From: Octopus vulgaris
Lineage: Eukaryota
Length of the DNA stretch: 64,000 bases
Reading direction: 5' to 3'
Assembly (NCBI GenBank): GCA_951406725.2
Contig: OX597832.1
Coordinates: 65,100,001-65,164,000 of the forward strand
Position 1 is the stretch's first letter, and the number at the start of each line of letters is the position of its first letter. A program made the position numbers and the translations under genes. Shown here piece after piece: positions 16,825-52,087 of this stretch. The notes beneath the pieces are model-generated. The model searched no databases. It was not told the origin of the DNA and saw only the letters and a program-made list of their open reading frames with translations.

Positions 16825-17159
16825 ATCTACCACACAATTGTTTGATTTCAATGGCTGCTGCTCCTGACTGTGACCTTGAAATGGTTGATCACGCATCTGC
16901 CTAGCATTTGTTCTCCAGCATGAAAAAACGATTTGACTGGGAACCAGTATCGTAGTGAGGATGATGTGATATCTGCTGTTGATGACTTTTTCGATCAACT
17001 AGATGAAAGGTTCTTCACCAATGTGATCCAAAGACTGCAACACCGATGGAGGAAATGTGTGGACAATAAAAAGGACAATTTTGAAAAATAAACCCTATTT
17101 GGACACAGCCCATCAGAATAGCTTCGTCAGCCTCTACGTTTTCAGCCGCCCCTCACATA
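16825..17159 (+). mobile_element. Mariner transposase C-terminal relic and right end (different family from 14705)
   Basis: Translates with a frameshift to HLFSSMKK...GNQYRSEDDVISAVDDFFDQLDERFFTNVIQRLQHRWRKCVD...FEK*, then a TIR-like ttttcagccgcccctca. Confidence 0.75.
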
Positions 17160-17594
17160 CAAAAACAATTATGCGTGCCTGGAACTGTAGATGTGTAAGC
17201 GTTCATGAGTAGGCAGGCATGTATTTATCTTTGTAAATCTGTCTTGTTCTTGTCCAAGAACAAAATGCCCACATACAAACACACATGTATATATACATTA
17301 CACACACGAACACACCTAGAAAGTAAACGCTTATATGTGCAAAAACACCCGTATTTTCTGCAACATTTAGCTAATTATCTTAATGATGATTGTTGGAACT
17401 AATGAATGAAATTAATGCCATCACGTTAGAACAGGCAGATGTCATATTCTTCACCTTATCTCTGCTGCTGTAAAAAAGAAAAAAATATAAATGCTTAAAG
17501 TTGAGTGGATGTACGCAATCTGCACATTCGCCATTATTAATTCACGCTAACAGTGACAGTGTGAGAAATAATGAATGAGAGAGATAGATTGCTG

Positions 17595-17651
<57 letters not shown>

Positions 17652-18753
17652 AGAAACCGAGAGAAAGAGAGTGAGAGAGAGAGAAGAAAAGAGTGATAGA
17701 GAGAAGAGGAGAAAAAGAGTGGCACGGAAACAGAGTAGCAGAGAGAAAGAAAAGGGATGGGAAAAAGAAAAGAGAAGACAAAATCAGAAAAAGAAAGTGA
17801 CAAAGTGGGAGAGAGAGAGAAAGAGAGAGAGAGTGAGTGAGTGAGAGAGAGAGAAAGAGAAAGAGAGAGGAGGAGAAGGAGAGAGCGTCGAAGGTACATA
17901 AAGTGTGTTAATTTGTGAATTCCGATAGCGAAGACTTTTCTTTAAATATAAAAGATTTATGAGGAAGGATTAAGAGAATAACAAAAACAATGATGACGGA
18001 AGATCACAAAAAGAAGAGAAAGGGGAAGGAAAGCACGAGGAAAGAATATAAAGTAAAAAGAAGAAGAAGAAGAAGAAGAAGAAGAAGAAGAAGAAGAAGA
18101 AGAAGAAGAAGGAGGAGGAGGAGGAGGAGAAATATGAGAAGACGTAGAAAAGAACAAGTGTGAAAATTCGGAAAACCGTTTCATAAAATTGAGTACATAA
18201 ATACCTAAACAGGTTTATTACAATGAACTTAAAAGCGGTTTATAAATGAAACTTATACGTAATCTCTCACACTTACAAGGCAAATATATTAACTTGCTGG
18301 ATCTCTCACACTTACAAGGCAAATATATTAACTCGCTGGATCTCCGTCGTATTTGAAGACGATTTTCTCGGTTGTTCTCCAAAACTTTTTTATTAGTTTT
18401 AATGTGAGTGGCTCGAATATTGCACAGAAGTTATACCTTCAAGGAAACTTAAGAGGCTATGAACGGGTGCAGTGAAGTAGAATGTGTAGATCTTTGAATT
18501 ACTTGCTACAGCGCCACAAATGGACACCCAAAGATTTAATGTCAAACAATTTTCTGTCACAGAGCTTGTAGTGGGACCACATTTCTGCACTGACTTGAAC
18601 ATACATACATACATACATACATACATACATACATACATACATACATGCATACATACATACATACATACACACATACTCACATACATGCGTTTGTATGTGT
18701 ATATATATATATATAAATATATATATAAACAAAGGGAGAGAGATATGTAAGTG

Positions 18754-18788
<35 letters not shown>

Positions 18789-19014
18789 AAGCGTATACAC
18801 ATGCATACACTTGCATATGTATACTTTACGTGTGTGTATATATATATCTATATAAACATACACATAGGAAGCGAAGTATAGTATTTATATAGGTGTATAT
18901 ATGTGCGTACATGTGTGTGACTTTGTGTGTGTATTATATATATATTATAGAGAGAGATGTATGCATGAGAATATATATATATATGAATGTATAAATTTAA
19001 ATATATATATATAT

Positions 19015-19538
19015 AGGCAGTTTTTACATGCCAGAAGAAGAAGTGAAAACGACCAAAACTACACTGAAGAACAATCTTCAAAAGGAATGAAAAAATAATG
19101 ACTTTTACTTTGTTATATATTCCGCTCAGACCTAGGTTTCTAAATAGTTTTAGCAAATAAAATAATTTGCTAGGCGAATTTTTCTTCAGTGACTGCACCA
19201 TGATAGGAGACGATTAACACGTGTCTCTTCGTTATACATTATAATTTTTCAAATTCACATTATAATTTTTCAAATTCACAGCGCAAGCGCAGTTTCATTC
19301 GGCAGTAAATGATTAACTACCGAATTAATCTTTTAAAAATTGCTAGAAACATATGCGTAAAATATATACAGGTTAGTGAGATTTTTGACTGCTTCTTCTA
19401 GCGTGTAAAAACTGTCTGTTTATGGCAGTTTTCTCTTGTGTTTAAATGTACACTATTATATATTGAGAATATGTTGTCGATTGACTTTTTATACATGCTA
19501 GGCCTCTGGTAGTGACATTTCTAAAAAAAAACTCACAG

Positions 19539-19541
<3 letters not shown>
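19015..19541. mobile_element. Penelope-like non-autonomous insert in (TA)n with inverted arms and a one-sided tail
   Basis: 19015-19049 is the reverse complement of 19383-19417 (30/35 by eye). Tail 19418-19541. Contains a hammerhead motif. (TA)n on both sides. Confidence 0.6.
19124..19196 (-). ncRNA. Type I hammerhead ribozyme motif
   Basis: Minus strand: tca-CUGAAGA-a-aaat...uagcaaau/auuugcua...auuu-a-GAAA-CCUAGG-UC-uga. Palindromic stem III and GUC triplet; stem I is short. Confidence 0.6.
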
Positions 19542-19634
<93 letters not shown>

Positions 19635-19914
19635 TGTATAATTAATTAATAAGGGTGAGAGAATTAGATACTAATTTAATAGTATATCTATTCAACACCA
19701 AGTGGCCTAGTGCTCCGAGAAACCTGGATTATTATAATATTTTATAACATATTATAATATTTTTACAAAATAAATATAAGAGAGTGGTCACTATATGGCT
19801 CACTCTAGCACCAGTTAATCCAAAAGGTTTCAACCACGAAAATACATGTTTCCCATGAAAGTCAGTACGATTGTTAGCTCACACGGACAGGGCAAATAAA
19901 AAATAACAAAAATA

Positions 19915-20011
19915 CAGATTATTTTGGGACAATTGTTTCGCTATTAATGAATTAAATGTAATTTTACTTACAAAAAAAATCCATTTGTAGCTCGTCAGCC
20001 AAAACTATCTG
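19915..20011 (-). ncRNA. Type I hammerhead ribozyme, copy 1
   Basis: Minus strand uuuugg-CUGACGA-gcua...uagc-GAAA-CAAUUG-UC-ccaaaa. Predicted cleavage between 19928 and 19927. Confidence 0.8.
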
Positions 20012-20450
20012 GATGAAATCCACTCAATCACACGCCAGATTTTACCATAACGATAAATACGCGTGTGGTTCAATTGATTACATCCGACGTTATAATTCAA
20101 ATGCCCCAACTAACAGCGCGCCAAACTTTCACGGAAAACAAATACAGCATTTAGAAATAAATGCAGCATAATTATAATTAATTAATAAGGGTGAGAGAAT
20201 TAGATACTAATTTAATAGTATATCTATTCAACACCAAGTGGCCTAGTGCTCCGAGAAACCTGGATTATTATAATATTTTATAACATATTATAATATTTTT
20301 ACAAAATAAATATAAGAGAGTGGTCACTATATGGCTCACTCTAGCACCAGTTAATCCAAAAGGTTTCAACCACGAAAATACATGTTTCCCATGAAAGTCA
20401 GTACGATTGTTAGCTCACACGGACAGGGCAAATAAAAAATAACAAAAATA

Positions 20451-20547
20451 CAGATTATTTTGGGACAATTGTTTCGCTATTAATGAATTAAATGTAATTT
20501 TACTTACAAAAAAAATCCATTTGTAGCTCGTCAGCCAAAACTATCTG
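20451..20547 (-). ncRNA. Type I hammerhead ribozyme, copy 2
   Basis: Same motif 536 nt away. Predicted cleavage between 20464 and 20463. Confidence 0.8.
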
Positions 20548-20752
20548 GATGAAATCCACTCAATCACACGCCAGATTTTACCATAACGATAAATACGCGT
20601 GTGGTTCAATTGATTACATCCGACGTTATAATTCAAATGCCCCAACTAACAGCGCGCCAAACTTCCAATTATAACGTCGGATGTAATCAATTGAACCACA
20701 CGCGTATTTATCGTTATGGTAAAATCTGGCGTGTGATTGAGTGGATTTCATC

Positions 20753-20849
20753 CAGATAGTTTTGGCTGACGAGCTACAAATGGATTTTTTTTGTAAGTAA
20801 AATTACATTTAATTCATTAATAGCGAAACAATTGTCCCAAAATAATCTG
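20753..20849 (+). ncRNA. Type I hammerhead ribozyme, copy 3 (in the inverted arm)
   Basis: Stem I ttttgg/ccaaaa, extendable with cagat/atctg. CTGACGA at 20766-20772. Stem II gcta/tagc, aatggatt/aattcatt, tgtaa/ttaca. GAAA at 20825-20828, palindrome CAATTG, GTC at 20834-20836. Confidence 0.8.
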
Positions 20850-21027
20850 TATTTTTGTTATTTTTTATTTGCCCTGTCCGTGTGAGCTAACAATCGTACT
20901 GACTTTCATGGGAAACATGTATTTTCGTGGTTGAAACCTTTTGGATTAACTGGTGCTAGAGTGAGCCATATAGTGACCACTCTCTTATATTTATTTTATA
21001 TATGCATGTATATATATTTAAGTTTAA

Positions 21028-21078
21028 TTTGTCAAAATATTTTCGTCGCTTTAAGACTGCGACCTGTTCACTGACAAA
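21028..21078 (-). ncRNA. Minimal hammerhead fold with swapped G3-C8 core (GUGAACA)
   Basis: Minus strand uuuguca-GUGAACA-g-gucgc-agucuuaaa-gcgac-GAAA-AUAU-UU-ugacaaa. Perfect 7-bp stem I, perfect 5-bp stem II, palindromic AAAAUAUUUU stem III. Confidence 0.6.
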
Positions 21079-21192
21079 AATCCGTGCTTTTGCGTGTTTC
21101 TTAAATGGCTTACAAACACCTTCCACGCTGCAATTGTTTTCGTATCAGCACACGATCTCAGATCAAATCACTTGCTATGCAAGTACATCTCC

Positions 21193-21268
<76 letters not shown>

Positions 21269-21295
21269 ATGTATATATATATATGTATATGTATG

Positions 21296-21346
<51 letters not shown>

Positions 21347-21356
21347 TATATCTATA

Positions 21357-21514
21357 TATCTATACAATAATATGTTACATTACTCGATAGTCAAGATGAA
21401 ACTCAGAGTTTTATCTTGACTATCGAGTAATGTAACATATTATTGTATAGATAAATTTCCTCTATTTACATAATATTGTGGTCTTTTTCTTTCTTTTGTT
21501 ATCTTACCGTTGTA

Positions 21515-21516
<2 letters not shown>
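21357..21516. mobile_element. Fold-back insert in (TA)n: 48-bp arms, 1-nt loop, ~63-nt tail
   Basis: 21357-21404 is the reverse complement of 21406-21453 (1 mismatch). Tail 21454-21516. Confidence 0.75.
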
Positions 21517-21552
<36 letters not shown>

Positions 21553-22168
21553 TGTATTTCTATATACATTTACATACATGCACATACACACACACACTCA
21601 TGTATAAATATATAAATTTATGTGTACACACGCAGACACAGAGATGCACCACAAACACACAGACACAGACACACACACTCACACACATATATACATACAT
21701 ATATGTATTATACATGCACACACACATACTGATAAACACACAGAGGTAAAGAATGCTTTATGTGTGATGCTGTGAGCTTTCATCTGGTTATTCAATAATT
21801 CCATGTGAAAATTGGTGCGGAATGTGCGAGAGATTAATTAAAAGTTGGCATGTAGGAACTGAAGAAGAAATAAATCATTAAAATATTTCGTTTCTGCTAA
21901 CAGAACCGAAAGAAAAAATATTATTCTCTGTACAAAAGTCAAAATGGTGTCACTATTCTCCACTTCATTTGGTATTCTTGCTTTCTTTTTCTCTTTTTCG
22001 TTCTTGCAATTCTGTTCTGCTTTTTGTCATTTCTGAATGTGCTTTTCTTGCCCACACACTCGCGCGCACACACACATATCGATATATCGAAAATGTATGT
22101 ATGCATATATATACACAGACACATATATAGACACATACACGCACACACACACACACATATATATATAG

Positions 22169-22231
<63 letters not shown>

Positions 22232-22271
22232 CATATACATGCATACGTATATGCCTATATATATATATATG

Positions 22272-22323
<52 letters not shown>

Positions 22324-22444
22324 CATACATATATCTATCTATATATATATATATAAAGCACGCATACTTGTCCGCGTTTGTGCGCGCGTGTGTGTGTGCA
22401 TGCTTGCGAGTGCGTTTTTTTGTCTGTGTGTATATGTTTGTGTA

Positions 22445-22485
<41 letters not shown>

Positions 22486-23114
22486 GTCTGTGTGTGTGTG
22501 TCTTAGTGTTCGTGCTGATAGGTTTGTACTTCCTATTCTCTTCATTGTTGTTTTTTGCATTTCTATTGATTTCGTTGTTTCCTTCTTTCTCCTTTTCTTT
22601 CTTCTGAATGGTCTTCCGTTCTCTTATTTTTCTTTTCTCCGCTGTATATTAAGCAAATTCATCAGGTTTTGCATTTCATGTCACTCTCATTTCTTATAAT
22701 TATAACTGTAATTATAAATACATGACGATGATTATGATCACAATGATATTATATGACAATAATAATTACAGTAATAATAATAACAGCAGCAACAATAAAT
22801 TAACGGTAACATATCTTTAGAAAAAGTAATATCGAACAAGAAGACCTAATAAAAATTGTCAATAGTTTTAGTATTGCCGTAAAATTGAGTATGAAGTGAA
22901 GATTATGTTGTTAGACAAATGTGCGAAATCGACTTTAAGAAATGGCAGAGTAACTAGCACCGAGAAAATTATAATATATCTCGACATTAAAATCGGAGAC
23001 TTAAGTCCACAGTCGCACATACAAATACCTTGATACAGACAAAATACCTAAAATATAGCACGGAATGTCAAAAAGAATGTTTATAGTGAATACTATAGAA
23101 AAGTTGACTAATAT

Positions 23115-24700
23115 CACTGTGCAACACTCAAAAAAGTACAAGAGATCTGTGGCCATTTTTATATTCAAAATGACATGGGGAATCCATTTCTGGCCTTCTT
23201 TTTGTTGAATTAGGTATGCTTTCTACAGAATTGTCAGTTTATAACATTTTTGTCATTAATATTAAATAAAATTCTCTACCGCATTGTAAGATTGGTTTCA
23301 ACCCAGGGCTAGAGACCAATCTTAGTAACACCTACAATATGATTCAAATCTTGTGTTTAATGTTATGTGTTATCTTTCAGATCTTATTTGTTTTCAACAA
23401 TAAGTGCAAGGCAGTGCCAAAATGATCCAAACAGATTCTGTTATATCTGTGGGAAATCGACTTTTGCTAAAGAAAAGCGCAGTATTACACGCCATATCAA
23501 GAAAATATACAAGGCGTACTTCGATTGTTACTTAGGAGACCAGGATAAGTCGTGGGCTCCTCATGTGTGTTACCTTATATGTGTGAAAACATTGTGTGCC
23601 TGCTATGCAGGAAAAAATGATCACATGAAGTTTGGTGTGCAAATGATTTGGCTTGAGCAGAGAGATCACTCTAATGATTGCTATTTCTGTCAACATAACT
23701 TTACCGGCTGTACTACAGCAAAGCAAAAGAAACACATTGTTTAACCCAAATTTGCAATCAGCAATGAGCCCTGTTGAGCACTCAGAAAATTTACCTGTGC
23801 CCAAACCTCCAGATCAAGAAATGCAGAGTTTCAGCAGTGCTGATGAACATTCCAGTGGTGAATGTGTGGTGCCCAATGATCCAGAAAGCGAGAATAAACC
23901 AATACCATTTTCTCAAGAGGCTCTAAATGACTTGTGCAGGGATCTCTCTTTCACCAAAGAGAAAGGTGAGTTTCTGTCATCAAGGCTTCAAGAACGTAAT
24001 CTTCTTGAGAAAGGTGTGAAGATAACACTGTACAGAAAACGTACAGAAGATCTGCTTACATTATTCCCCATGAAGGATAACTTATGCTTTTGTAATGACA
24101 TCACTCAACTTTTTGAGCAACTGGAAATACCATATGATAAAACCAACTGGCGACTTTTCATAGATACATCGAAGGACAGCATCAAAGCTGTTCTGCTACA
24201 CAATGGTAACACTCTGTCTTCTGTTCCCATAGCTTCTAGCACAACCATGAAATCATCATATGAAAATCTGAAAGCAATTCTAACAAGCATACAGTATGAT
24301 CACCATACCTGGCATATTTGTGCAGATTTTAAGGCTGTGGCCATGCTTACTGTATTTCAGCTTGGCTATACTTAATTTTGCTGCTTCCTGTGTTTCTAGA
24401 ATTCCAGAGCAAGAGCCGAACATTATGTACGCAAGGAGTGGCCGATCCGAGATGAAATTGAGCGAAAACCACTTGTGAAAAGTGATAGAATTATTTTTTT
24501 CCCATCTTTGCATATTAAACTTGGTTTGTTTAAGCAATTTGTGAAAGCCTTGGAAAAGGAATCCTCCGCATTTGCATATCTTTCAGAAAAGTTCCCTTCC
24601 CTGAGTCAAGCTAAAATTAAAGGTTTCTTCATAGGTCTCCAAATTCGAAAAATTGTATTCGATGAAGCCTTCATCACACATCTCAAGAGAAAAGAGAATC
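23115..24700 (+). mobile_element. Chapaev3-like (CMC superfamily) DNA transposon, disrupted and 3'-truncated
   Basis: CACTG terminus at 23115. Peptides CQNDPNRFCYICG, WAPHVC, DHSNDCYFC, LNDLCRDL, WRLFIDTSKDSIKAVLLHNGN, WHICADFK, LHIKLGLFKQFVKAL across frameshifted ORFs 23367-24700. Family assignment is from recall. Confidence 0.75.
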
Positions 24701-24889
24701 TTTTCAGTCGATCGCTGAAAAGGTTATTTCTGTGTATCTTCGCATTTATTTGTATGTATCTGGCGTTATACGTCGTGGTTTCTATTTTGAAAAAAAAAAC
24801 AAAACAAAAAAACGTGTGCATACGTCTGTGTCTACGATGCGTAACTTTTCTATTATATGCATATAATTTGCATAAATATATGTATTAAA

Positions 24890-25141
24890 GGAGGGTTCCG
24901 TCGGTTACGATGACGAGAGTCCCAGCCAATACGATCAATGGAACAGCTTGCTCCTGAAATTAATGTGCAAATGACTGAGCAATCCACAGACACGCGTTCT
25001 CGAGGATATTCAACGTGACCCAGAATGGGACAAGGTTGGCCCTTTGAAATACAGCTACTTCTCATTTTTGCCAGCTGGATGGATTGGAGCAACGTGAAAT
25101 AAAGTGTCTTGCTCAATGACAGAACGCGTCGCCGGGAATTG
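24890..25141 (-). mobile_element. Diverged SINE related to family B
   Basis: ccgtcggttacgatgacgag...ggaacagcttgctcctgaaattaatgtgcaa...tccacagacacg, shared with the 11833 copy. Confidence 0.75.
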
Positions 25142-29177: not shown

Positions 29178-29557
29178 CACATGTATATATATATAACATT
29201 CAGTTAATAGAAAAGAAAAAAATTATATGTGTGCGTGTGTATGTGTGTGTGTGTGTGTTTGTGTGTGCGTATATATGTGTGTGCGTATGTATGCATATAT
29301 GTATTTGCTGAAAAACACAACAAGCATCCAATAGGAGATGCATATCACAAATTCCTCTTTAATCACCGTCCGTTCTATAGAGCACAGCTTTTTCTGTTAC
29401 TATCTGTCTCAACTATCATCTCGGTTCGTCCATCCTGTCTGTTCTGTTTGAATTCAAGGGCTACATACCTGACAACTTCAAGCTACAAAATAGTCAACGA
29501 GAGTTGAAATTGAAGAGGGGTATAGTAACAGAAATAGTTGATGCTTATAACTTAAAT

Positions 29558-30370
29558 GTTCCCAGGACTTTTTGGAAAGTTATTAGGATTAACTGGAAAG
29601 TTCTGAGGACATCCTGTAAAGTATCATGGATTTCCTGGAAAGTTCCTAGGATTACCTGGAAAATTCCGAGGATTTTAATGGAAAGTGCCGAGTATTACTG
29701 GAAAGTTCCTAGGATCTCCTGGAAAGATCCGAGAATTTCCGATGATTTCATGGAAAGCGCTGATGATTTCGTGGAATGTTCCGCTTATTCACTAGAAAGA
29801 TCCGAGGATTTCCTGGAATGTTCCGGGGATTACCTGGAAAATTCCGAGCACTCTCTGGAAAGATTCGAGGATTTCATGCAAAGTACGGAGGTCTTCCTGG
29901 AAAGTTCCGAGGACTTCCAATGGATCTTCTGGAAAGTTCCGGGCGCTCCATGCAAATTTCCGAGGACTTCCTGGAAAGTTACAAGGATTTCGTGCAAAAT
30001 TCCGAAGACTGGAAAGGTCCGACGATTTCCGAGGATTTCATGGAAAGCTCTGAGGATTTCATGGAGGTTCCCGAGGATTTCATGCATATTTCCCAGCATT
30101 TTCTTGAAAGTTAAATGGATTTCCCGGAAAGTTCTGATGATTTCATGGAAAGTTCCGAGGCCACCATGGAAATTTCCGAGGACTTACTGGAAAGTTACGA
30201 GCATTTCATGGAAAGTTCCTAGTATTTTCGAGGATTCCATGGAAATTTCCGAGTATTGCATGGAAAATTTCAATGATTTCCTGGAAAGTTCCGAGGATTT
30301 CGTAGAAAGTTCCGATGATTTCCTGGAAAACTCCGACGAATAGGTGAGATATGACTTGCTAGAAAGTTCT
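29558..30370. repeat. 21-bp minisatellite, consensus GGATTTCCTGGAAAGTTCCGA, roughly 35-38 diverged units
   Basis: Visible periodicity; translates as the heptads WKVPRIS / ESSEDFL. Confidence 0.9.
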
Positions 30371-46070: not shown

Positions 46071-47811
46071 CATCCGTCTCCTAATGTAAGAACCGAAGCT
46101 CGTCATACCTCAATGTTAAAAAAAAAACAAATTACAAGCCGCAATGGTCATCGATCGGAATACGAAAAACCACAAACCCGAATATTGAACCAAATTCTGA
46201 TTGAATAATCAGCTACTGGTTCAAATCGTCCCGACACACAGGAGCTGGACGTACCCTACAATCGGAATATTCCAACAGATGGCCATCCATGCCTGTCATC
46301 AAATAACCAAAAAAAAAAAAGAATGAAATTTGGTCTAGGGAAGATAACAAGGAAGTTCTTAAGGCCTTCTACATTGCCATATATTTCCCCACAGATAAAT
46401 CTAATATTGTACAAACCTACTTCAACTGGAGACAGAAGCACCCTGAAGTAAGACCCTACATAGACAGTAACAAACTTGCCAACGTCAGAAGAAACATTCT
46501 AAAAAAAAAATTACTGACTGAAGTAGAGATTGACCAGATTAAACAAGCAGTAACGGATAAAAAGAACGAAGCTGCAGCTAAAGATGATAATACAGAGGAA
46601 ATAATTATAGGGGCTGATAAAAACGCAGTAAGGATTAAAAGAGTTAGTATAATTGATAGGCAAAGTGAAATACTCACTGAACCAATCATAAACACTATGA
46701 CAGATGAACATCAAATAGATGAAGAAATTCACACAAATATTGACCCAACAAAACCTCATGAGCTAAAGAATCAATTCATGATTGAATGACTGAAAATAAA
46801 AGAAACCAGTATGGATGAACGCGATACACTTCCTAAAATCTGCAACTCTAACCAAAACATGAAGATAATTGGTAAAATCCGCCTTGCACTTAAGGATATA
46901 ATTTCAGCTAATGATGTTAATATTACAGATCTCAACCACCTGTACTATGCATCCACGAAAATCTCAACGATTCTATGTGGTGAAAAGTTAGAAAACACAA
47001 CATTCCCACAAAGAGCCTTCTTGGCAAGAGCGTATCCAACAACAACTTAAACTACTTAGGTCTGACATTGAATGTTTGAAAAACCTTAAGGTTGACAAGA
47101 CTACCAAACCTGCAAAAAGCCCAAACTTAAAGAAAATATATATGAAAACTATACTTGATATTGATGCCACCATAGAAACCATCAATCAAAAGGTATCTGC
47201 TAAAGCTGCCCGAATAGCGAGGTAGGAAAAGCGTTTTAGATTCCTCAAGTACAGCAACATGTTAAAAAATAACCCCAAAAAGTTCTACAGGAAGATAGGG
47301 AAAACACCAGTTACTGTAAAATCTGTACCATCAAAAGTAGTGCAGGAATTTTGGAATAAAATTTGGGCAGAAGAAAAAACACACAACGAAAAGGCTCCTT
47401 GGATTGATAGAATATCTACGGATTAGTATTCCTTAGAGGAGCAAAAGTGGGAGGGTGTTAAGGTAGAAGATATAAGATCTACTCTCAGGATGTCAAGCAA
47501 ATGGAAGTCTCCAGGAAAGTATAAAATTCCTAACTTCTGTTTGAATGCCTTCCCAGAGAGCCATGGACTGCTAACAGAATTTTATAATGATGTTTGCAAC
47601 ACCCTAGTACGATGCCTCCTTGGCTAGTTAATGGTTTAACATTCCTGCTTCCAAAAAGTGAAGAAACAAATAAACCAAAAGCTATAGACCCATGACCTGC
47701 TTAACAACTATGTATAAAATGCTAACATCTGTCCTGACAGAATCTAACTATAGTTTTTTAATAGACAGCAGCATATTTCCTAAAGAACAGAAAGGATGTA
47801 AACGTGGATCC

Positions 47812-48157
47812 TACTTACAGACAAAAAGTTTCGCAGAATAGGCGCTATTTTATACATTTCCAGGCATTTCTTAATCAAGCTATGTGGTAGGCTATCAAAA
47901 GCCTTTTTATAGTCTATCCAGGCTATTGATAAGTTTTTGTGTCGTTTGTGACAATCTTCTAAGATCAACTTCTTGATGAGTAGCTGATCTCATCAAGAAG
48001 TTGATCTTAGAAGATTGTCACAAACGACACAAAAACTTATCAATAGCCTGGATAGACTATAAAAAGGCTTTTGATAGCCTACCACATAGCTTGATTAAGA
48101 AATGCCTGGAAATGTATAAAATAGCGCCTATTCTGCGAAACTTTTTGTCTGTAAGTA
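47812..48157. repeat. 169-bp inverted duplication (8-nt loop) inside the RT domain
   Basis: 47812-47980 is the reverse complement of 47989-48157. The same peptide ILEDCHKRHKNLSIAWIDYKKAFD appears on both strands in the ORF track. Confidence 0.95.
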
Positions 48158-50122
48158 TGAGATCATGGAGAACCACACTAACTTTGAACAATGAGAATGA
48201 ATCTCTAAATGCTGTTGAGGTTAAAATTTCATGTGGCATTTTCCAGGGTGACTCACTATTACCACTCCTTAATACCACTCTCAAAATTGCTCAAAGACGC
48301 ACAGTACGGATATAAAATGCTGGATAAAAATATAAATCAGCTCATTTACATAGATGATTTAAAGCTCTTTGCAAAAAATGACCAACAACTCAACGGTTTA
48401 TTAACGATGGTTAAACAATTCAGTGATGACATCGGAATGCAATTGGGCCTCGATAAATGTGCAAAAGCAAGCTTTATCAAAGGAAAATGACAGAAACATC
48501 TAACGTTTACCTTGACCAGCAGAATGCCATAAAAGAGGTAGACCCAGCAGAAAGCTACAAGTACCTAGGGGTAATTGAAGGAGATGGAATAAGGCATTCA
48601 GTGATGAAGGACAGGATCAGGAGAGAATGTTATCGCAGCGTAAGAGCAATGCTCAAGACAGTTGAACGCGAGAAACAGGATCGAAGCGATCAATGCATTA
48701 GCCATACCAGTCGTAACTTACAGTTTCAATATCGTTAACTGGTCAATTACTGAAATATATAATCTTGACAGAAAAATACGAAAACTGTTGACAATGCATA
48801 GAATGCACCACTCTAAGGCAGATATAGAACGACTTTATCTGCCAAGAAAAGAGGGAGGCCATGGACTTTTACAACTGGCAATAACAATGAAGATTGCTAC
48901 AATTGGCCTAGACACCTATCTGAAAAACTCTGAGGACTGGATGTTAGAACTTGTCTCAAAACATGAAAACAAGAAAGCATGATACTCAGTAACAAAACAG
49001 GCAAAGGGATATCTAAGTGAATTCTGAATACAACAAATTTCGGTATTAGACCTACAAGAAACAAGCACAGAAAAAGCTAAGCGCATGAAAATATGTGCTA
49101 AAACTGCTGCCTTAGATATTCTGAATGTTAAATTGCAAGAAAAACCTCTCAATGGCAAATACCCAGAGAATGCGAGTAATGCAGATGTTGACAAAGCCCT
49201 GACCAATCAATGGCTCATGGCCTCTGGCTTAAAATTTGAAACAGAGGGGCTTATCATAGCAGCTCAAGCTCAATACCTACCTACAAGGAATTACCAGGCC
49301 AACATATCAAAGAACGTCAGTAGTCCAACATGTCGTGTATGTCAACAACAAAATGAAACCATTGATGATGTTGTCTCCAAGTGCAGTCTTCTTGCGCCTA
49401 CAGAGTATCTCAACAGGCATGTTACAGCTGCACAATATATTCACTGGGTAATTTGCAAAAGCCTGGACTTGCCCCATGATAAAACGGGTGGGAACACAAT
49501 CCACCTCCAGTGCTTGAAAATGACCACATCTCACTCCTCTGGAACTTCAGCATTCAAACTGACAGAAAGATAGATGCAAATAGGCCAGACATTATTAAAA
49601 GACTTCAGACAAAAGACATGCCTCCTCATTGATGTTACTGTGCCAATCGATATAAACGTATCTGTCAAGACCTACCAAAAACTGAGCAAATATAAAGATC
49701 TTGAAATAGAAATCAGCAAAATGTGGACCTGAAGACTAAAACAATACCTGTTGTCATAGGTGCCCTGGGAATGATAGTAAAAGGGGTTGATTGCTACCTA
49801 ACTCAGATACCAGGAAACCCCAAAATGGCAGAAATTCAAAAGATAGTGCTCATGGGAAGTGCTCATATCCTACGCAAAATACTTTCTATGTAATCTCAAG
49901 TTTTAAAACAAACATAATTTTCGTATGGTTTTTTAGACATTCACTAGTACAACACTAAGTACAAAACCAAATATATGGCACCCTAGGCATAACATCAACA
50001 CGAGCTTCCAGCTTGTTGTCTCTTGAGGTCTCTGGGTGAGACCTGGAGCCAACTTGTGCAAATGTAAAGCAAAAGTCAAACATAGAATAATAATAATAAT
50101 AATAATGATAATAATAATTATG

Positions 50123-50246
<124 letters not shown>

Positions 50247-50260
50247 TAATAATAATAGTA

Positions 50261-50344
<84 letters not shown>

Positions 50345-50348
<4 letters not shown>

Positions 50349-52087
50349 GACCAACAACTCAAGGGCTTACTAGCGATAGTCAAACAATTCAGTGACGGCA
50401 TCAGAATGCAATTCGGCCTCGATAAATGTGCAAAGGCCACCTTTATCAAAGGACAAATGACAGAAACATCTAACGTTAACCTTGACCAACAGAATGTCAT
50501 AAAAGAACTAGACCCAGCGGAGAGCTACAAGTACCTAGGGGTAATTGAAGGGAACGGAATAAGGCATTCAGAGATGAAGGAAAGGATCAGGTAGAATGCT
50601 ATCGAAGAGTGAGAGCAATACTCAAGACAGAGCTGAATGCAAGAAACAGGATCGAAGCGATCAATGCATTAGCCATACCAGTCGTGACTTACAGTTTCAA
50701 TATTGTTAACTGGTCAATTACTGAAATATGTCAGCTCGACAGAAAAATAAGGAAACTGTTGACAATGCATAGAATGCACCACCCTAAGGCAGATACAGAA
50801 CGACTCTATCTGCCAAGAAAAGAGGGAGGCCGTGGACTTTTGCAACTGGCAATAATAATGAAGATTGCTACAATTGGCCTAGACACCTACCTGAAAAACT
50901 CTGAGAACTGGATGTTAAAACTTGTCTCAAAACATGAAAACAAGAATGCATCATACTCAGTCACAAAACAGGCAAAGGAATATCTAAGTGAATTCCGAAT
51001 ACAACCAATTTCGGAATTAGAGATAGATATACAAGAAACAAGCACAGAAAAAGCTAGGCGCATGAAAACCCGTGCCAAAACTGCGGCCTTAGATATTCTG
51101 AATAATAAATGGCAAGAAAAACCTCTCTATGGCAAATACCCAAAGAGAGCGAATAATGCAGATATCGACAAAGACCTGACCAATCAATGGCTAATGGCCT
51201 TTGGCTTAACATCTGAAACAGAGGGGTTTATCATAGCAGCTCAAGATCAATGCCTACCAACAAGAAACTACCAGGCCAACATATTAAAGAACGGCAGTAG
51301 CCCAACATGTCGTGTATGCCGACAACAAAATGAAACCATTGACCATGTTGTCTCCAAATGCAGTCTTCTAGCGCCTACAGAGTACCTCAGTAGGCATGAT
51401 AGAGCTGCACAATATATTCACTGGGTAATTTGCAAAAACCTGGATTTGCCCCATGAAAAAAACTGGTGGGAACACAATCCACCTCCTGTGCTTGAAAATG
51501 ACCACATCTCACTCCTCTGGAACTTCACCATTCAAACTGACAGAAAGATAGATGCAAATAGGCCAGACATTATATTGAAAGACTTCAGACAAAGAACATG
51601 CTCCCTCATTGATATGACTGTCCCAATCGATATAAACGTATCTGTCAAGACCTACCAAAAACTGAGCAAATATAAAGATCTTGAAATAGAAATCAGCAAA
51701 ATGTGGAAGCTGAAGACTAAAACAATACCTGTTGTCATAGGTGCCCTGGGAATAATAGCGAAAGGGACTGACTGCTACCTAACTCAGATACCAGGAAACC
51801 CCAAAATGGCAGAAATTCAAAAGATAGTGCTCATGGGAACTGCTCATATCCTACGCAAAATACTCTCTATCTAATCTCAAGGTTTAAAACAAACTTTTTT
51901 TTTTTAATTTAAAAAAAAATAAATTTTTTTTTATGTATTAGACATTCACTAGTACAACACCAAAAAAAGAAGAAGACAAAAAACCCCTCAAATATATGGC
52001 ACAGAACTTCCAACCTGTTGTCTCTTGAGGTCTCTGGGTGAGACTTGGAGCCAACTTGTACATACATAAAGCAAAAGTCAAACATAG
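50345..52087 (+). mobile_element. 5'-truncated younger copy of the same R4/Dong family
   Basis: Colinear with 48376-50085. Ends gtcaaacatag followed by (AAT)n. Confidence 0.92.
50609..51874 (+). pseudogene. Open C-terminal part of the R4/Dong ORF: post-RT region, CCHC zinc knuckle, restriction-like endonuclease
   Basis: 421-aa ORF with RLYLPRKEGGRGL, AAQDQ, CRVCRQQNETIDHVVSKC, RHD, RPDIIL...LIDMTVP...KLSKYKDL, PVVIGALG. Upstream frameshift near 50592 and 5' truncation. Confidence 0.9.

Follow-up and report, generated by a model that had tools for sequence, protein, structure and literature searches.

The window (the whole 64,000-nt stretch of Octopus vulgaris DNA that was analysed) contains an insertion built of two head-to-tail units and a third, inverted arm, the parts of which are located in Table 1. 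The direct repeat has a period of 536 nt, with 100% identity between positions 19637–20128 and 20173–20664. An earlier note on this DNA had described a 536-bp head-to-tail unit followed by a 331-bp inverted copy; both the period and the arm are confirmed, but the second unit lacks the last 44 of the 536 nt and so amounts to 492 of 536. The identity of the copies, judged by eye at the time, is indeed complete over the spans compared, that is, between the two direct units and between the inverted arm and unit positions 461 to 131. The unit is non-coding, as had also been concluded: it has 32% GC, stop codons in all six frames and no tRNA-like part. The placement of the insertion inside (TA)n holds for the left side, whereas the right side shows the duplicated target only. 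What had been overlooked is a 16-nt word that flanks the whole insertion and occurs only twice in the 64-kb window, and is therefore a target-site duplication. We identify the locus as a single, recent insertion of a non-LTR retrozyme, a tandem repeat that bears hammerheads and encodes no protein.

Table 1 Features of the insertion and its flanks, in positions of the window
Feature	Position	Strand	Remarks
(TA)n microsatellite target	19542..19631		left of element
Target-site duplication, left copy, 16 nt	19625..19640	+	overlaps element end by 4 nt
Full 536-nt unit	19637..20172	-	RNA is read from the minus strand; priming site A (RNA 3' end) lies at the outer end
"Tail" of ~130 nt between sites A and B	19637..19766	-	on left arm; missing from inverted arm
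C(C/T)CT(A/T)AT-WWW motif just inside site A	19646..19655	-	also at both ends of the candidate helper
Type I hammerhead 1	19915..20011	-	core 19998; predicted cut 19928/19927
Predicted 536-nt cleavage monomer or circle	19928..20463	-	from predicted cuts and fold z scores
Second unit, 492 nt, truncated on RNA 5' side	20173..20664	-	identical to first unit
Type I hammerhead 2	20451..20547	-	core 20534; predicted cut 20464/20463
Two filler bases at 5'-to-5' junction of arms	20665..20666
Inverted arm, 331 nt	20667..20997	+	full identity with unit positions 461 to 131; priming site B lies at the outer end
Type I hammerhead 3	20753..20849	+	core 20766; predicted cut after 20836
Same C(C/T)CT(A/T)AT-WWW motif just inside site B	20982..20991	+
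Target-site duplication, right copy, 16 nt	20997..21012	+

The structure is read from assembled sequence and its copies are 100% identical, so that the tandem and the fold-back might be suspected of being assembly artefacts. We regard the probability of this as practically negligible given that the target-site duplication is intact and that the same architecture recurs with different junctions at 54 loci, with haplotypes specific to each array.

Several other features of the window are recorded here in their own right. A high-copy repeat of another kind (21013–21190), with a contig depth in the thousands in three sequencing runs, adjoins the right target-site duplication; on the minus strand, it contains CUGAUA immediately before GAAA, as well as an ACAAUUG stretch. 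A near-perfect hairpin of about 85 nt (21363–21447) lies within a (TA)n tract and is possibly a tiny fold-back insertion. Further away, a degenerate 21-nt tandem array (29381–30340) forms a 320-codon open frame, and the open frames at 46307–51870 and 23647–24890 bear a by-eye likeness to parts of a non-LTR retrotransposon and of a DNA-transposon-like protein, respectively.

Each of the three copies carries a complete type I hammerhead with an intact core, in line with the earlier reading, and the cleavage sites predicted at that stage were reproduced exactly. In each hammerhead, stem I has 7+5 bp, the core reads CUGACGA, the stem II region spans 52 nt, and stem III is the palindrome ACAAUUGU, which offers 2 bp as a monomer and 8 bp as a dimer. 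The ribozyme is not of the minimal type found in Penelope-like elements (PLEs): with a 2-bp stem III and a palindromic loop, it has instead the canonical metazoan form, with an unusually long stem II. Short palindromic stems III are described as typical of metazoan type I hammerheads, which are expected to need a dimer (PMC4209133). Rfam searched over 17000–24000 yielded 51 matches at E<=1 with no hammerhead family among them, probably because of the long stem II.

The hammerhead region folds better than expected (z = -4.9; 0 of 200 shuffles equally good), and across 26 variants picked from the 90 distinct ones found, 93% of the cells are paired compared to 30–41% in slid controls; these sequences are related, so shuffle counts are not to be read as probabilities. 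Changes on both sides are seen at 10 of 31 hammerhead pairs, 7 of them in stem I, which we interpret as maintenance of the structure by compensatory changes. Among the array haplotypes, variable sites are not significantly scarcer in the core than elsewhere in the unit (2/18 versus 122/536 sites, p 0.39). The monomer that would be released by two successive cuts is predicted to be strongly folded as well, with a z score of -6.8 as a linear molecule and of -7.2 as a circle, 68% paired, and this fold is strand-specific (circular fold of -151 kcal/mol for the minus strand versus -112.5 for the plus strand). The lowest-energy fold of the monomer mispairs the core, and the active fold costs 5.6 kcal/mol. 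Self-cleavage, activation by dimerisation and the 536-nt circle are predictions.

An exact-pattern search of the 2.8-Gb assembly (227 contigs) found 2,179 hammerheads of this form, and reversed-pattern controls found 0. Position 7 is C in 1,031 of the matches and a different base in 1,148. The first 100 matches of the two patterns correspond to 26 and about 40 loci, respectively; by extrapolation, the genome would contain roughly 700. Many full copies elsewhere are 99–100% identical to the unit in the window, and tandem arrays reach at least 18 units in a row. The family is young and has recently spread to hundreds of sites. We mapped 105 non-redundant loci, consisting of the best DNA matches and the first pattern matches on contig C1, a sample biased to young, hammerhead-containing copies, and analysed 98 of them (segments of at least 90% identity), dropping 7 older copies near 70–80%. 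At one copy (L022), the flanks appear to be duplicated over about 60 nt, far more than the 15–16 nt at other loci. The genome also harbours further families of hammerheads with a long stem II (L034/L150, L141–L143, L149, L151, L152, L092, L099 and L312:9558–9869), some of which form small inverted pairs that sit within (TA)n next to the ends of PLEs, and one of which, with the palindrome ACUCGAGU, is weakly related to the hammerhead of the 536-nt family.

A linkage of the unit to an ORF for a reverse transcriptase (RT) and GIY-YIG endonuclease, the genome-wide check that the earlier note had envisaged, was seen at none of the ~100 loci examined out of roughly 700, with three PLE proteins as queries; the profile search of the genome was run with PF01541. 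None of the copies examined serves as a terminal repeat to a coding element, and the family therefore qualifies as a non-LTR retrozyme. Three loci with nearby ORF fragments (L147, L217, L224) were considered as ORF-linked copies and rejected, being separate insertions divided by (TA)n or by a target-site duplication. At L222, an old Hydra-like RT fragment is found at a distance of 247 nt from the copy, which is tentatively read as an insertion into that fragment.

These observations bear on the alternative that the unit is simply the pseudo-LTR of an autonomous PLE and that the loci are 5'-truncated copies of it. Inverted arms, a tail and TA targeting do give the loci the look of truncated PLE copies as these are described in PMC8557442, 24 of 57 retrozyme families in Xenopus have Repbase homologues that are nearly all PLEs according to the text of 10.64898/2026.07.22.740005, and the loci examined are ~100 of roughly 700. 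Against this stand the presence of another unit upstream of each unit, with runs of at least 18, the separation of the ORF fragments just mentioned from the neighbouring copies, and the lack of significant nucleotide similarity between the unit and the termini of either of the two young PLEs of this genome, so that we consider a pseudo-LTR origin very improbable.

The ends of the copies indicate how the retrozyme moves. Among the 98 loci, 54 are inverted, with the RNA 3' ends pointing outward, 43 are simple and 1 is complex. Nearly all outer ends (139 of 148) fall at two sites of the unit, 78 at site A (unit ~1–5) and 61 at site B (unit ~130), and (TA)4 adjoins 133 of the 148. The two sites are strictly paired: 44 of the 54 inverted loci combine A with B, none combines A with A or B with B, and 10 are unclassified (binomial p about 1e-13). 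Three of these 10 are cut by a fetch edge or an N gap, and several have rearranged ends that retain A or B sequence. The locus in the window conforms, its left end being at site A and its right end at site B. At L217, where the target is not TA, one end is at A and the opposite one at B, and a clean 15-nt duplication fixes both. Duplications of 16 nt are found in the window and at L201; at most other loci, the duplication is unreadable inside (TA)n. A cluster of 5' ends of non-inverted copies at unit 240–293 (10/38) was considered and disappeared once the junction ends were added.

The resulting arrangement, an inverted 5'-truncated copy with a tail on one end only, is the footprint of PLEs, the tail of which is "present only at one end" (PMC8557442), with the distinction that the tail is ~130 nt long here, outside the PLE range of 30–40 nt. 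In vitro, as reported in PMC11167929, a PLE uses two internal sites of RT initiation, and its enzyme, a predicted dimer, nicks both strands. Because the A and B ends match both the PLE tail and the dual internal starts, we infer that the inserting enzyme was Penelope-like, and mobilisation of the retrozyme by such an enzyme appears very likely from this analysis. The initial reading of the locus as a retrozyme or a non-autonomous Penelope-like system thereby holds at the level of DNA, the family being dispersed, tandem and marked by a Penelope insertion footprint.

The genome contains two young, intact PLEs, both of which target (TA)n. One of them (L311–L326) has ORFs of 821–862 aa at 12 of the 16 loci fetched, with 7 copies 98.4–99.7% identical to an eighth. 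It features a DKT motif, a CxCX5C linker, CxxC and CxH around the E and N of the endonuclease and a canonical hammerhead, a match to the Hydra clade that was read from the translation against section 11 of PMC8557442, with RWK reading KWK here; by these motifs, we classify the intact element as Hydra-like. In this element, RT and endonuclease are separated by an asparagine-rich insert, and the downstream hammerhead follows the end of the ORF after about 3.5–4 kb, a span that exceeds the elements of under 3 kb described for the clade (PMC8557442). The other young PLE (L091–L104, L106 and many of L037–L060) encodes a 781-aa RT-GIY-YIG protein and has a hammerhead with a UUGAUAA core (U3–A8), the palindrome ACAUGU and ends 30–40 nt apart; an upstream ORF of 479 aa and repeated CCAAT/TGACGT-like blocks in its terminal repeat were also observed.

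The Hydra-like PLE shares several particulars with the retrozyme. All 10 of its distinct two-arm loci are of the A+B type, its hammerhead has the same stem III palindrome, and the 10-nt end motif is found twice at its two ends, 84 nt apart, and twice in the unit, just inside the ends, compared to none in the other PLE and an average of 0.06 in shuffles of the unit, with the caveat that the motif was defined after the ends had been seen. Overall homology between the unit and the Hydra-like terminal repeat was not detected, 100 of 300 shuffles having aligned as well. The element with the 781-aa ORF, the first autonomous PLE found, was demoted to a less likely helper in view of its 30–40-nt tail, its different palindrome, its lack of the end motif and its lack of similarity to the unit. 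The Hydra-like family is thus our best candidate for the helper, an assignment that we would put at about an even chance. More speculatively, the 536-nt circle may be a viroid-like satellite of this Hydra-clade PLE that mimics the two priming motifs of the latter, docks on the helper RNA through ACAAUUGU as a mixed hammerhead dimer and is copied by the dimeric enzyme in rolling-circle mode from two fixed starts, one per target strand. We deem this full scenario unlikely; if true, it would supply a named retrozyme–helper pair with a readable mechanism.

The internal variation of the arrays bears on the nature of the template. Within the 98 loci, 65 arrays have three or more units, and substitutions per unit amount to 0.59 within arrays versus a median of 11 between arrays. 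The 65 arrays fall into 44 haplotype groups, and 13 variants are fixed in a single array and private to it, 8 of which occur on both arms, private meaning here among the 98 sampled of about 700 loci. In 18 of the 65 arrays, including ones of 14 and 9 segments, there is no substitution at all; among the long arrays, L172 and L156 have none and L154 has two singletons. Rolling-circle copying predicts repeated bottlenecks of one unit that are each followed at once by multimerisation, and the near-clonal arrays fit this prediction. Inner ends are distributed throughout the unit: near the cut, at unit 281–296, there are 3 of 146, where 4.4 would be expected. At least two cut sites are crossed by 86 of 153 arms; the template is therefore not a cleaved linear monomer that is copied a single time. 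We think it probable that the main template is the circular monomer.

An alternative model, proposed by Li et al. 2026 (10.64898/2026.07.22.740005), would have PLE-made insertions of one or two units lengthened in place by unequal crossing-over, as in satellites. It could account for the correlation, a weak one, between array length and internal divergence (rho 0.26, p 0.04) and for the approximate repetition of blocks of variants in L153 and L181. Such a process is hard to reconcile with long arrays almost or wholly devoid of variation, with minor variants of which 137 out of 153 are singletons and with shared variants of which 2 out of 16 are confined to adjacent units, nor would it be expected to leave both arms multimeric, as they are at many loci; we therefore view it as improbable.

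The variants that do recur present a problem of a different kind. The 16 recurrent minor variants occur in 8 of the 65 arrays, on non-adjacent units, and these arrays are therefore not the product of a single monomeric circle. In four long arrays (L155, L181, L153 and L166), variants recur on both arms and on units that are not neighbours; L155 combines alleles found fixed at other loci, and L181 and L153 show a partial periodicity of variants. Template switching, multimeric circles or conversion might each be involved in these four arrays. Furthermore, two of the haplotype groups hold 9 and 11 arrays, so that master loci also fit the data.

All this, together with the arms that read through cut sites, is compatible with a scheme in which the same retrozyme and the same Penelope-type enzyme are at work and the template is an uncleaved multimeric transcript from a small number of long master arrays, or separate monomers are used in turn as the enzyme switches template, the hammerhead being dispensable for insertion. 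In the one PLE that has been reconstituted, from anole, the text of PMC11167929 likewise reports unprocessed RNA as the dominant substrate and hammerhead mutants that had no effect on insertion; cleavage in vitro was obtained for 1 of 9 Xenopus retrozyme dimers (10.64898/2026.07.22.740005). Yet copying from multimers can only shorten arrays and should build up internal diversity, whereas the diversity within arrays is about 20-fold below that between them and the 65 arrays represent 44 haplotype groups; the compensatory changes that maintain the hammerhead also speak against its being dispensable. We accordingly rate this scheme as rather unlikely.

Of 24 entries for sequencing runs, 20 contain the stretch, with run types that are guessed or unrecorded and none that is recorded as RNA. 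Contigs of four runs guessed to be RNA cover the unit, contigs being blind to strand, ends and circularity. In one run (X7), the unit is covered as a closed cycle by a contig of 565 nt, which exceeds the unit by about 30 nt; tandem DNA would give this as well as a circle. A back-splice read joining 19928 to 20463, which had been put forward as evidence of a circle, is identical letter for letter to the junction between genomic tandem units; because the genomic tandem carries the same junction, such reads cannot discriminate a circle.

Taken together, the explanation that we favour, and consider reasonably likely, is that of a retrozyme pasted into the genome by the RT-endonuclease of a PLE, which probably copies its way round the predicted 536-nt RNA circle. 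In the proposed sequence of events, an array would be transcribed, probably by read-through or by Pol II, given the stretches of 8, 5 and 6 U in the RNA. Neighbouring hammerheads would then pair their ACAAUUGU palindromes and excise a monomer, which a host ligase would close into a circle. The enzyme would nick both strands of AT-rich DNA 12–16 nt apart, one nick priming at site A and the other at site B. Each cDNA would run for a variable number of rounds, after which two cDNAs would join 5' to 5', or one would join the target.

The enzyme and the template of animal retrozymes are left open in PMC7229834 and 10.64898/2026.07.22.740005, as far as these sources were available, and the mechanism of retrozyme mobilisation is still to be elucidated according to Li et al. 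2026 (10.64898/2026.07.22.740005). The octopus family is young enough to preserve the insertion footprint, with exact priming coordinates and a strict rule of one site per strand, a rule that also bears on how Penelope-like enzymes produce inverted insertions. Since the genome contains both a candidate helper and an alternative to it, each of them intact, the identity of the helper and the rolling-circle mode of copying can be tested in an existing in vitro format (PMC11167929).

Non-LTR retrozymes have been demonstrated in coral, mussel and axolotl (PMC7229834), so the class is not new to molluscs. The giant squid genome paper reports hammerheads as a count only, 235. Our literature search returned no description of the 536-nt family or of paired priming in retrozymes, and the family may be catalogued in Repbase or Dfam. 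Like the metazoan non-LTR retrozymes described in PMC7229834, the octopus family consists of tandem non-coding repeats of low GC with one type I hammerhead per unit, a 2-bp stem III, target-site duplications of more than 4 bp and a highly self-paired predicted circle. It differs in the length of the unit, 536 nt versus about 170–400 nt, with a stem II region of 52 nt here, and in that the circle is predicted from DNA alone, whereas those of metazoan retrozymes were seen by northern blot (PMC7229834). In the accessible portions of that work, we found no paired priming sites, inverted arms or named helper; it was proposed there, and not shown, that RT copies the circles into cDNA in tandem and that PLEs are candidates for the helper (PMC7229834). 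The retrozymes of Li, Clavereau and Pollet 2026 (10.64898/2026.07.22.740005) likewise contain two consecutive units with complete hammerheads and co-occur with PLEs, and 536 nt lies within their range of 51–972 bp. Their case, built on vertebrates with insects and coral as outgroups, is based on co-occurrence and on homology to pseudo-LTRs (10.64898/2026.07.22.740005), whereas in the octopus no pseudo-LTR homology is detectable but the insertion footprint is readable.

With PLEs, the family has in common the inverted 5'-truncated copy, the extension at one end, internal RT starts downstream of the hammerhead and AT-rich targets (PMC8557442, PMC11167929); it departs from them in its longer tail, in encoding no protein and in the strict A+B pairing counted at 44 loci. 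The Chlamys elements such as MRC1 are non-autonomous partners of PLEs that also form multicopy head-to-tail insertions, but these resemble their autonomous partners at the 3' end and belong to a clade mostly without canonical hammerheads (PMC8557442). The octopus family thus agrees, in each DNA-level property that was tested, with the known class of metazoan non-LTR retrozymes, and what appears to be new is its mechanistic insertion footprint, with paired and fixed priming sites.
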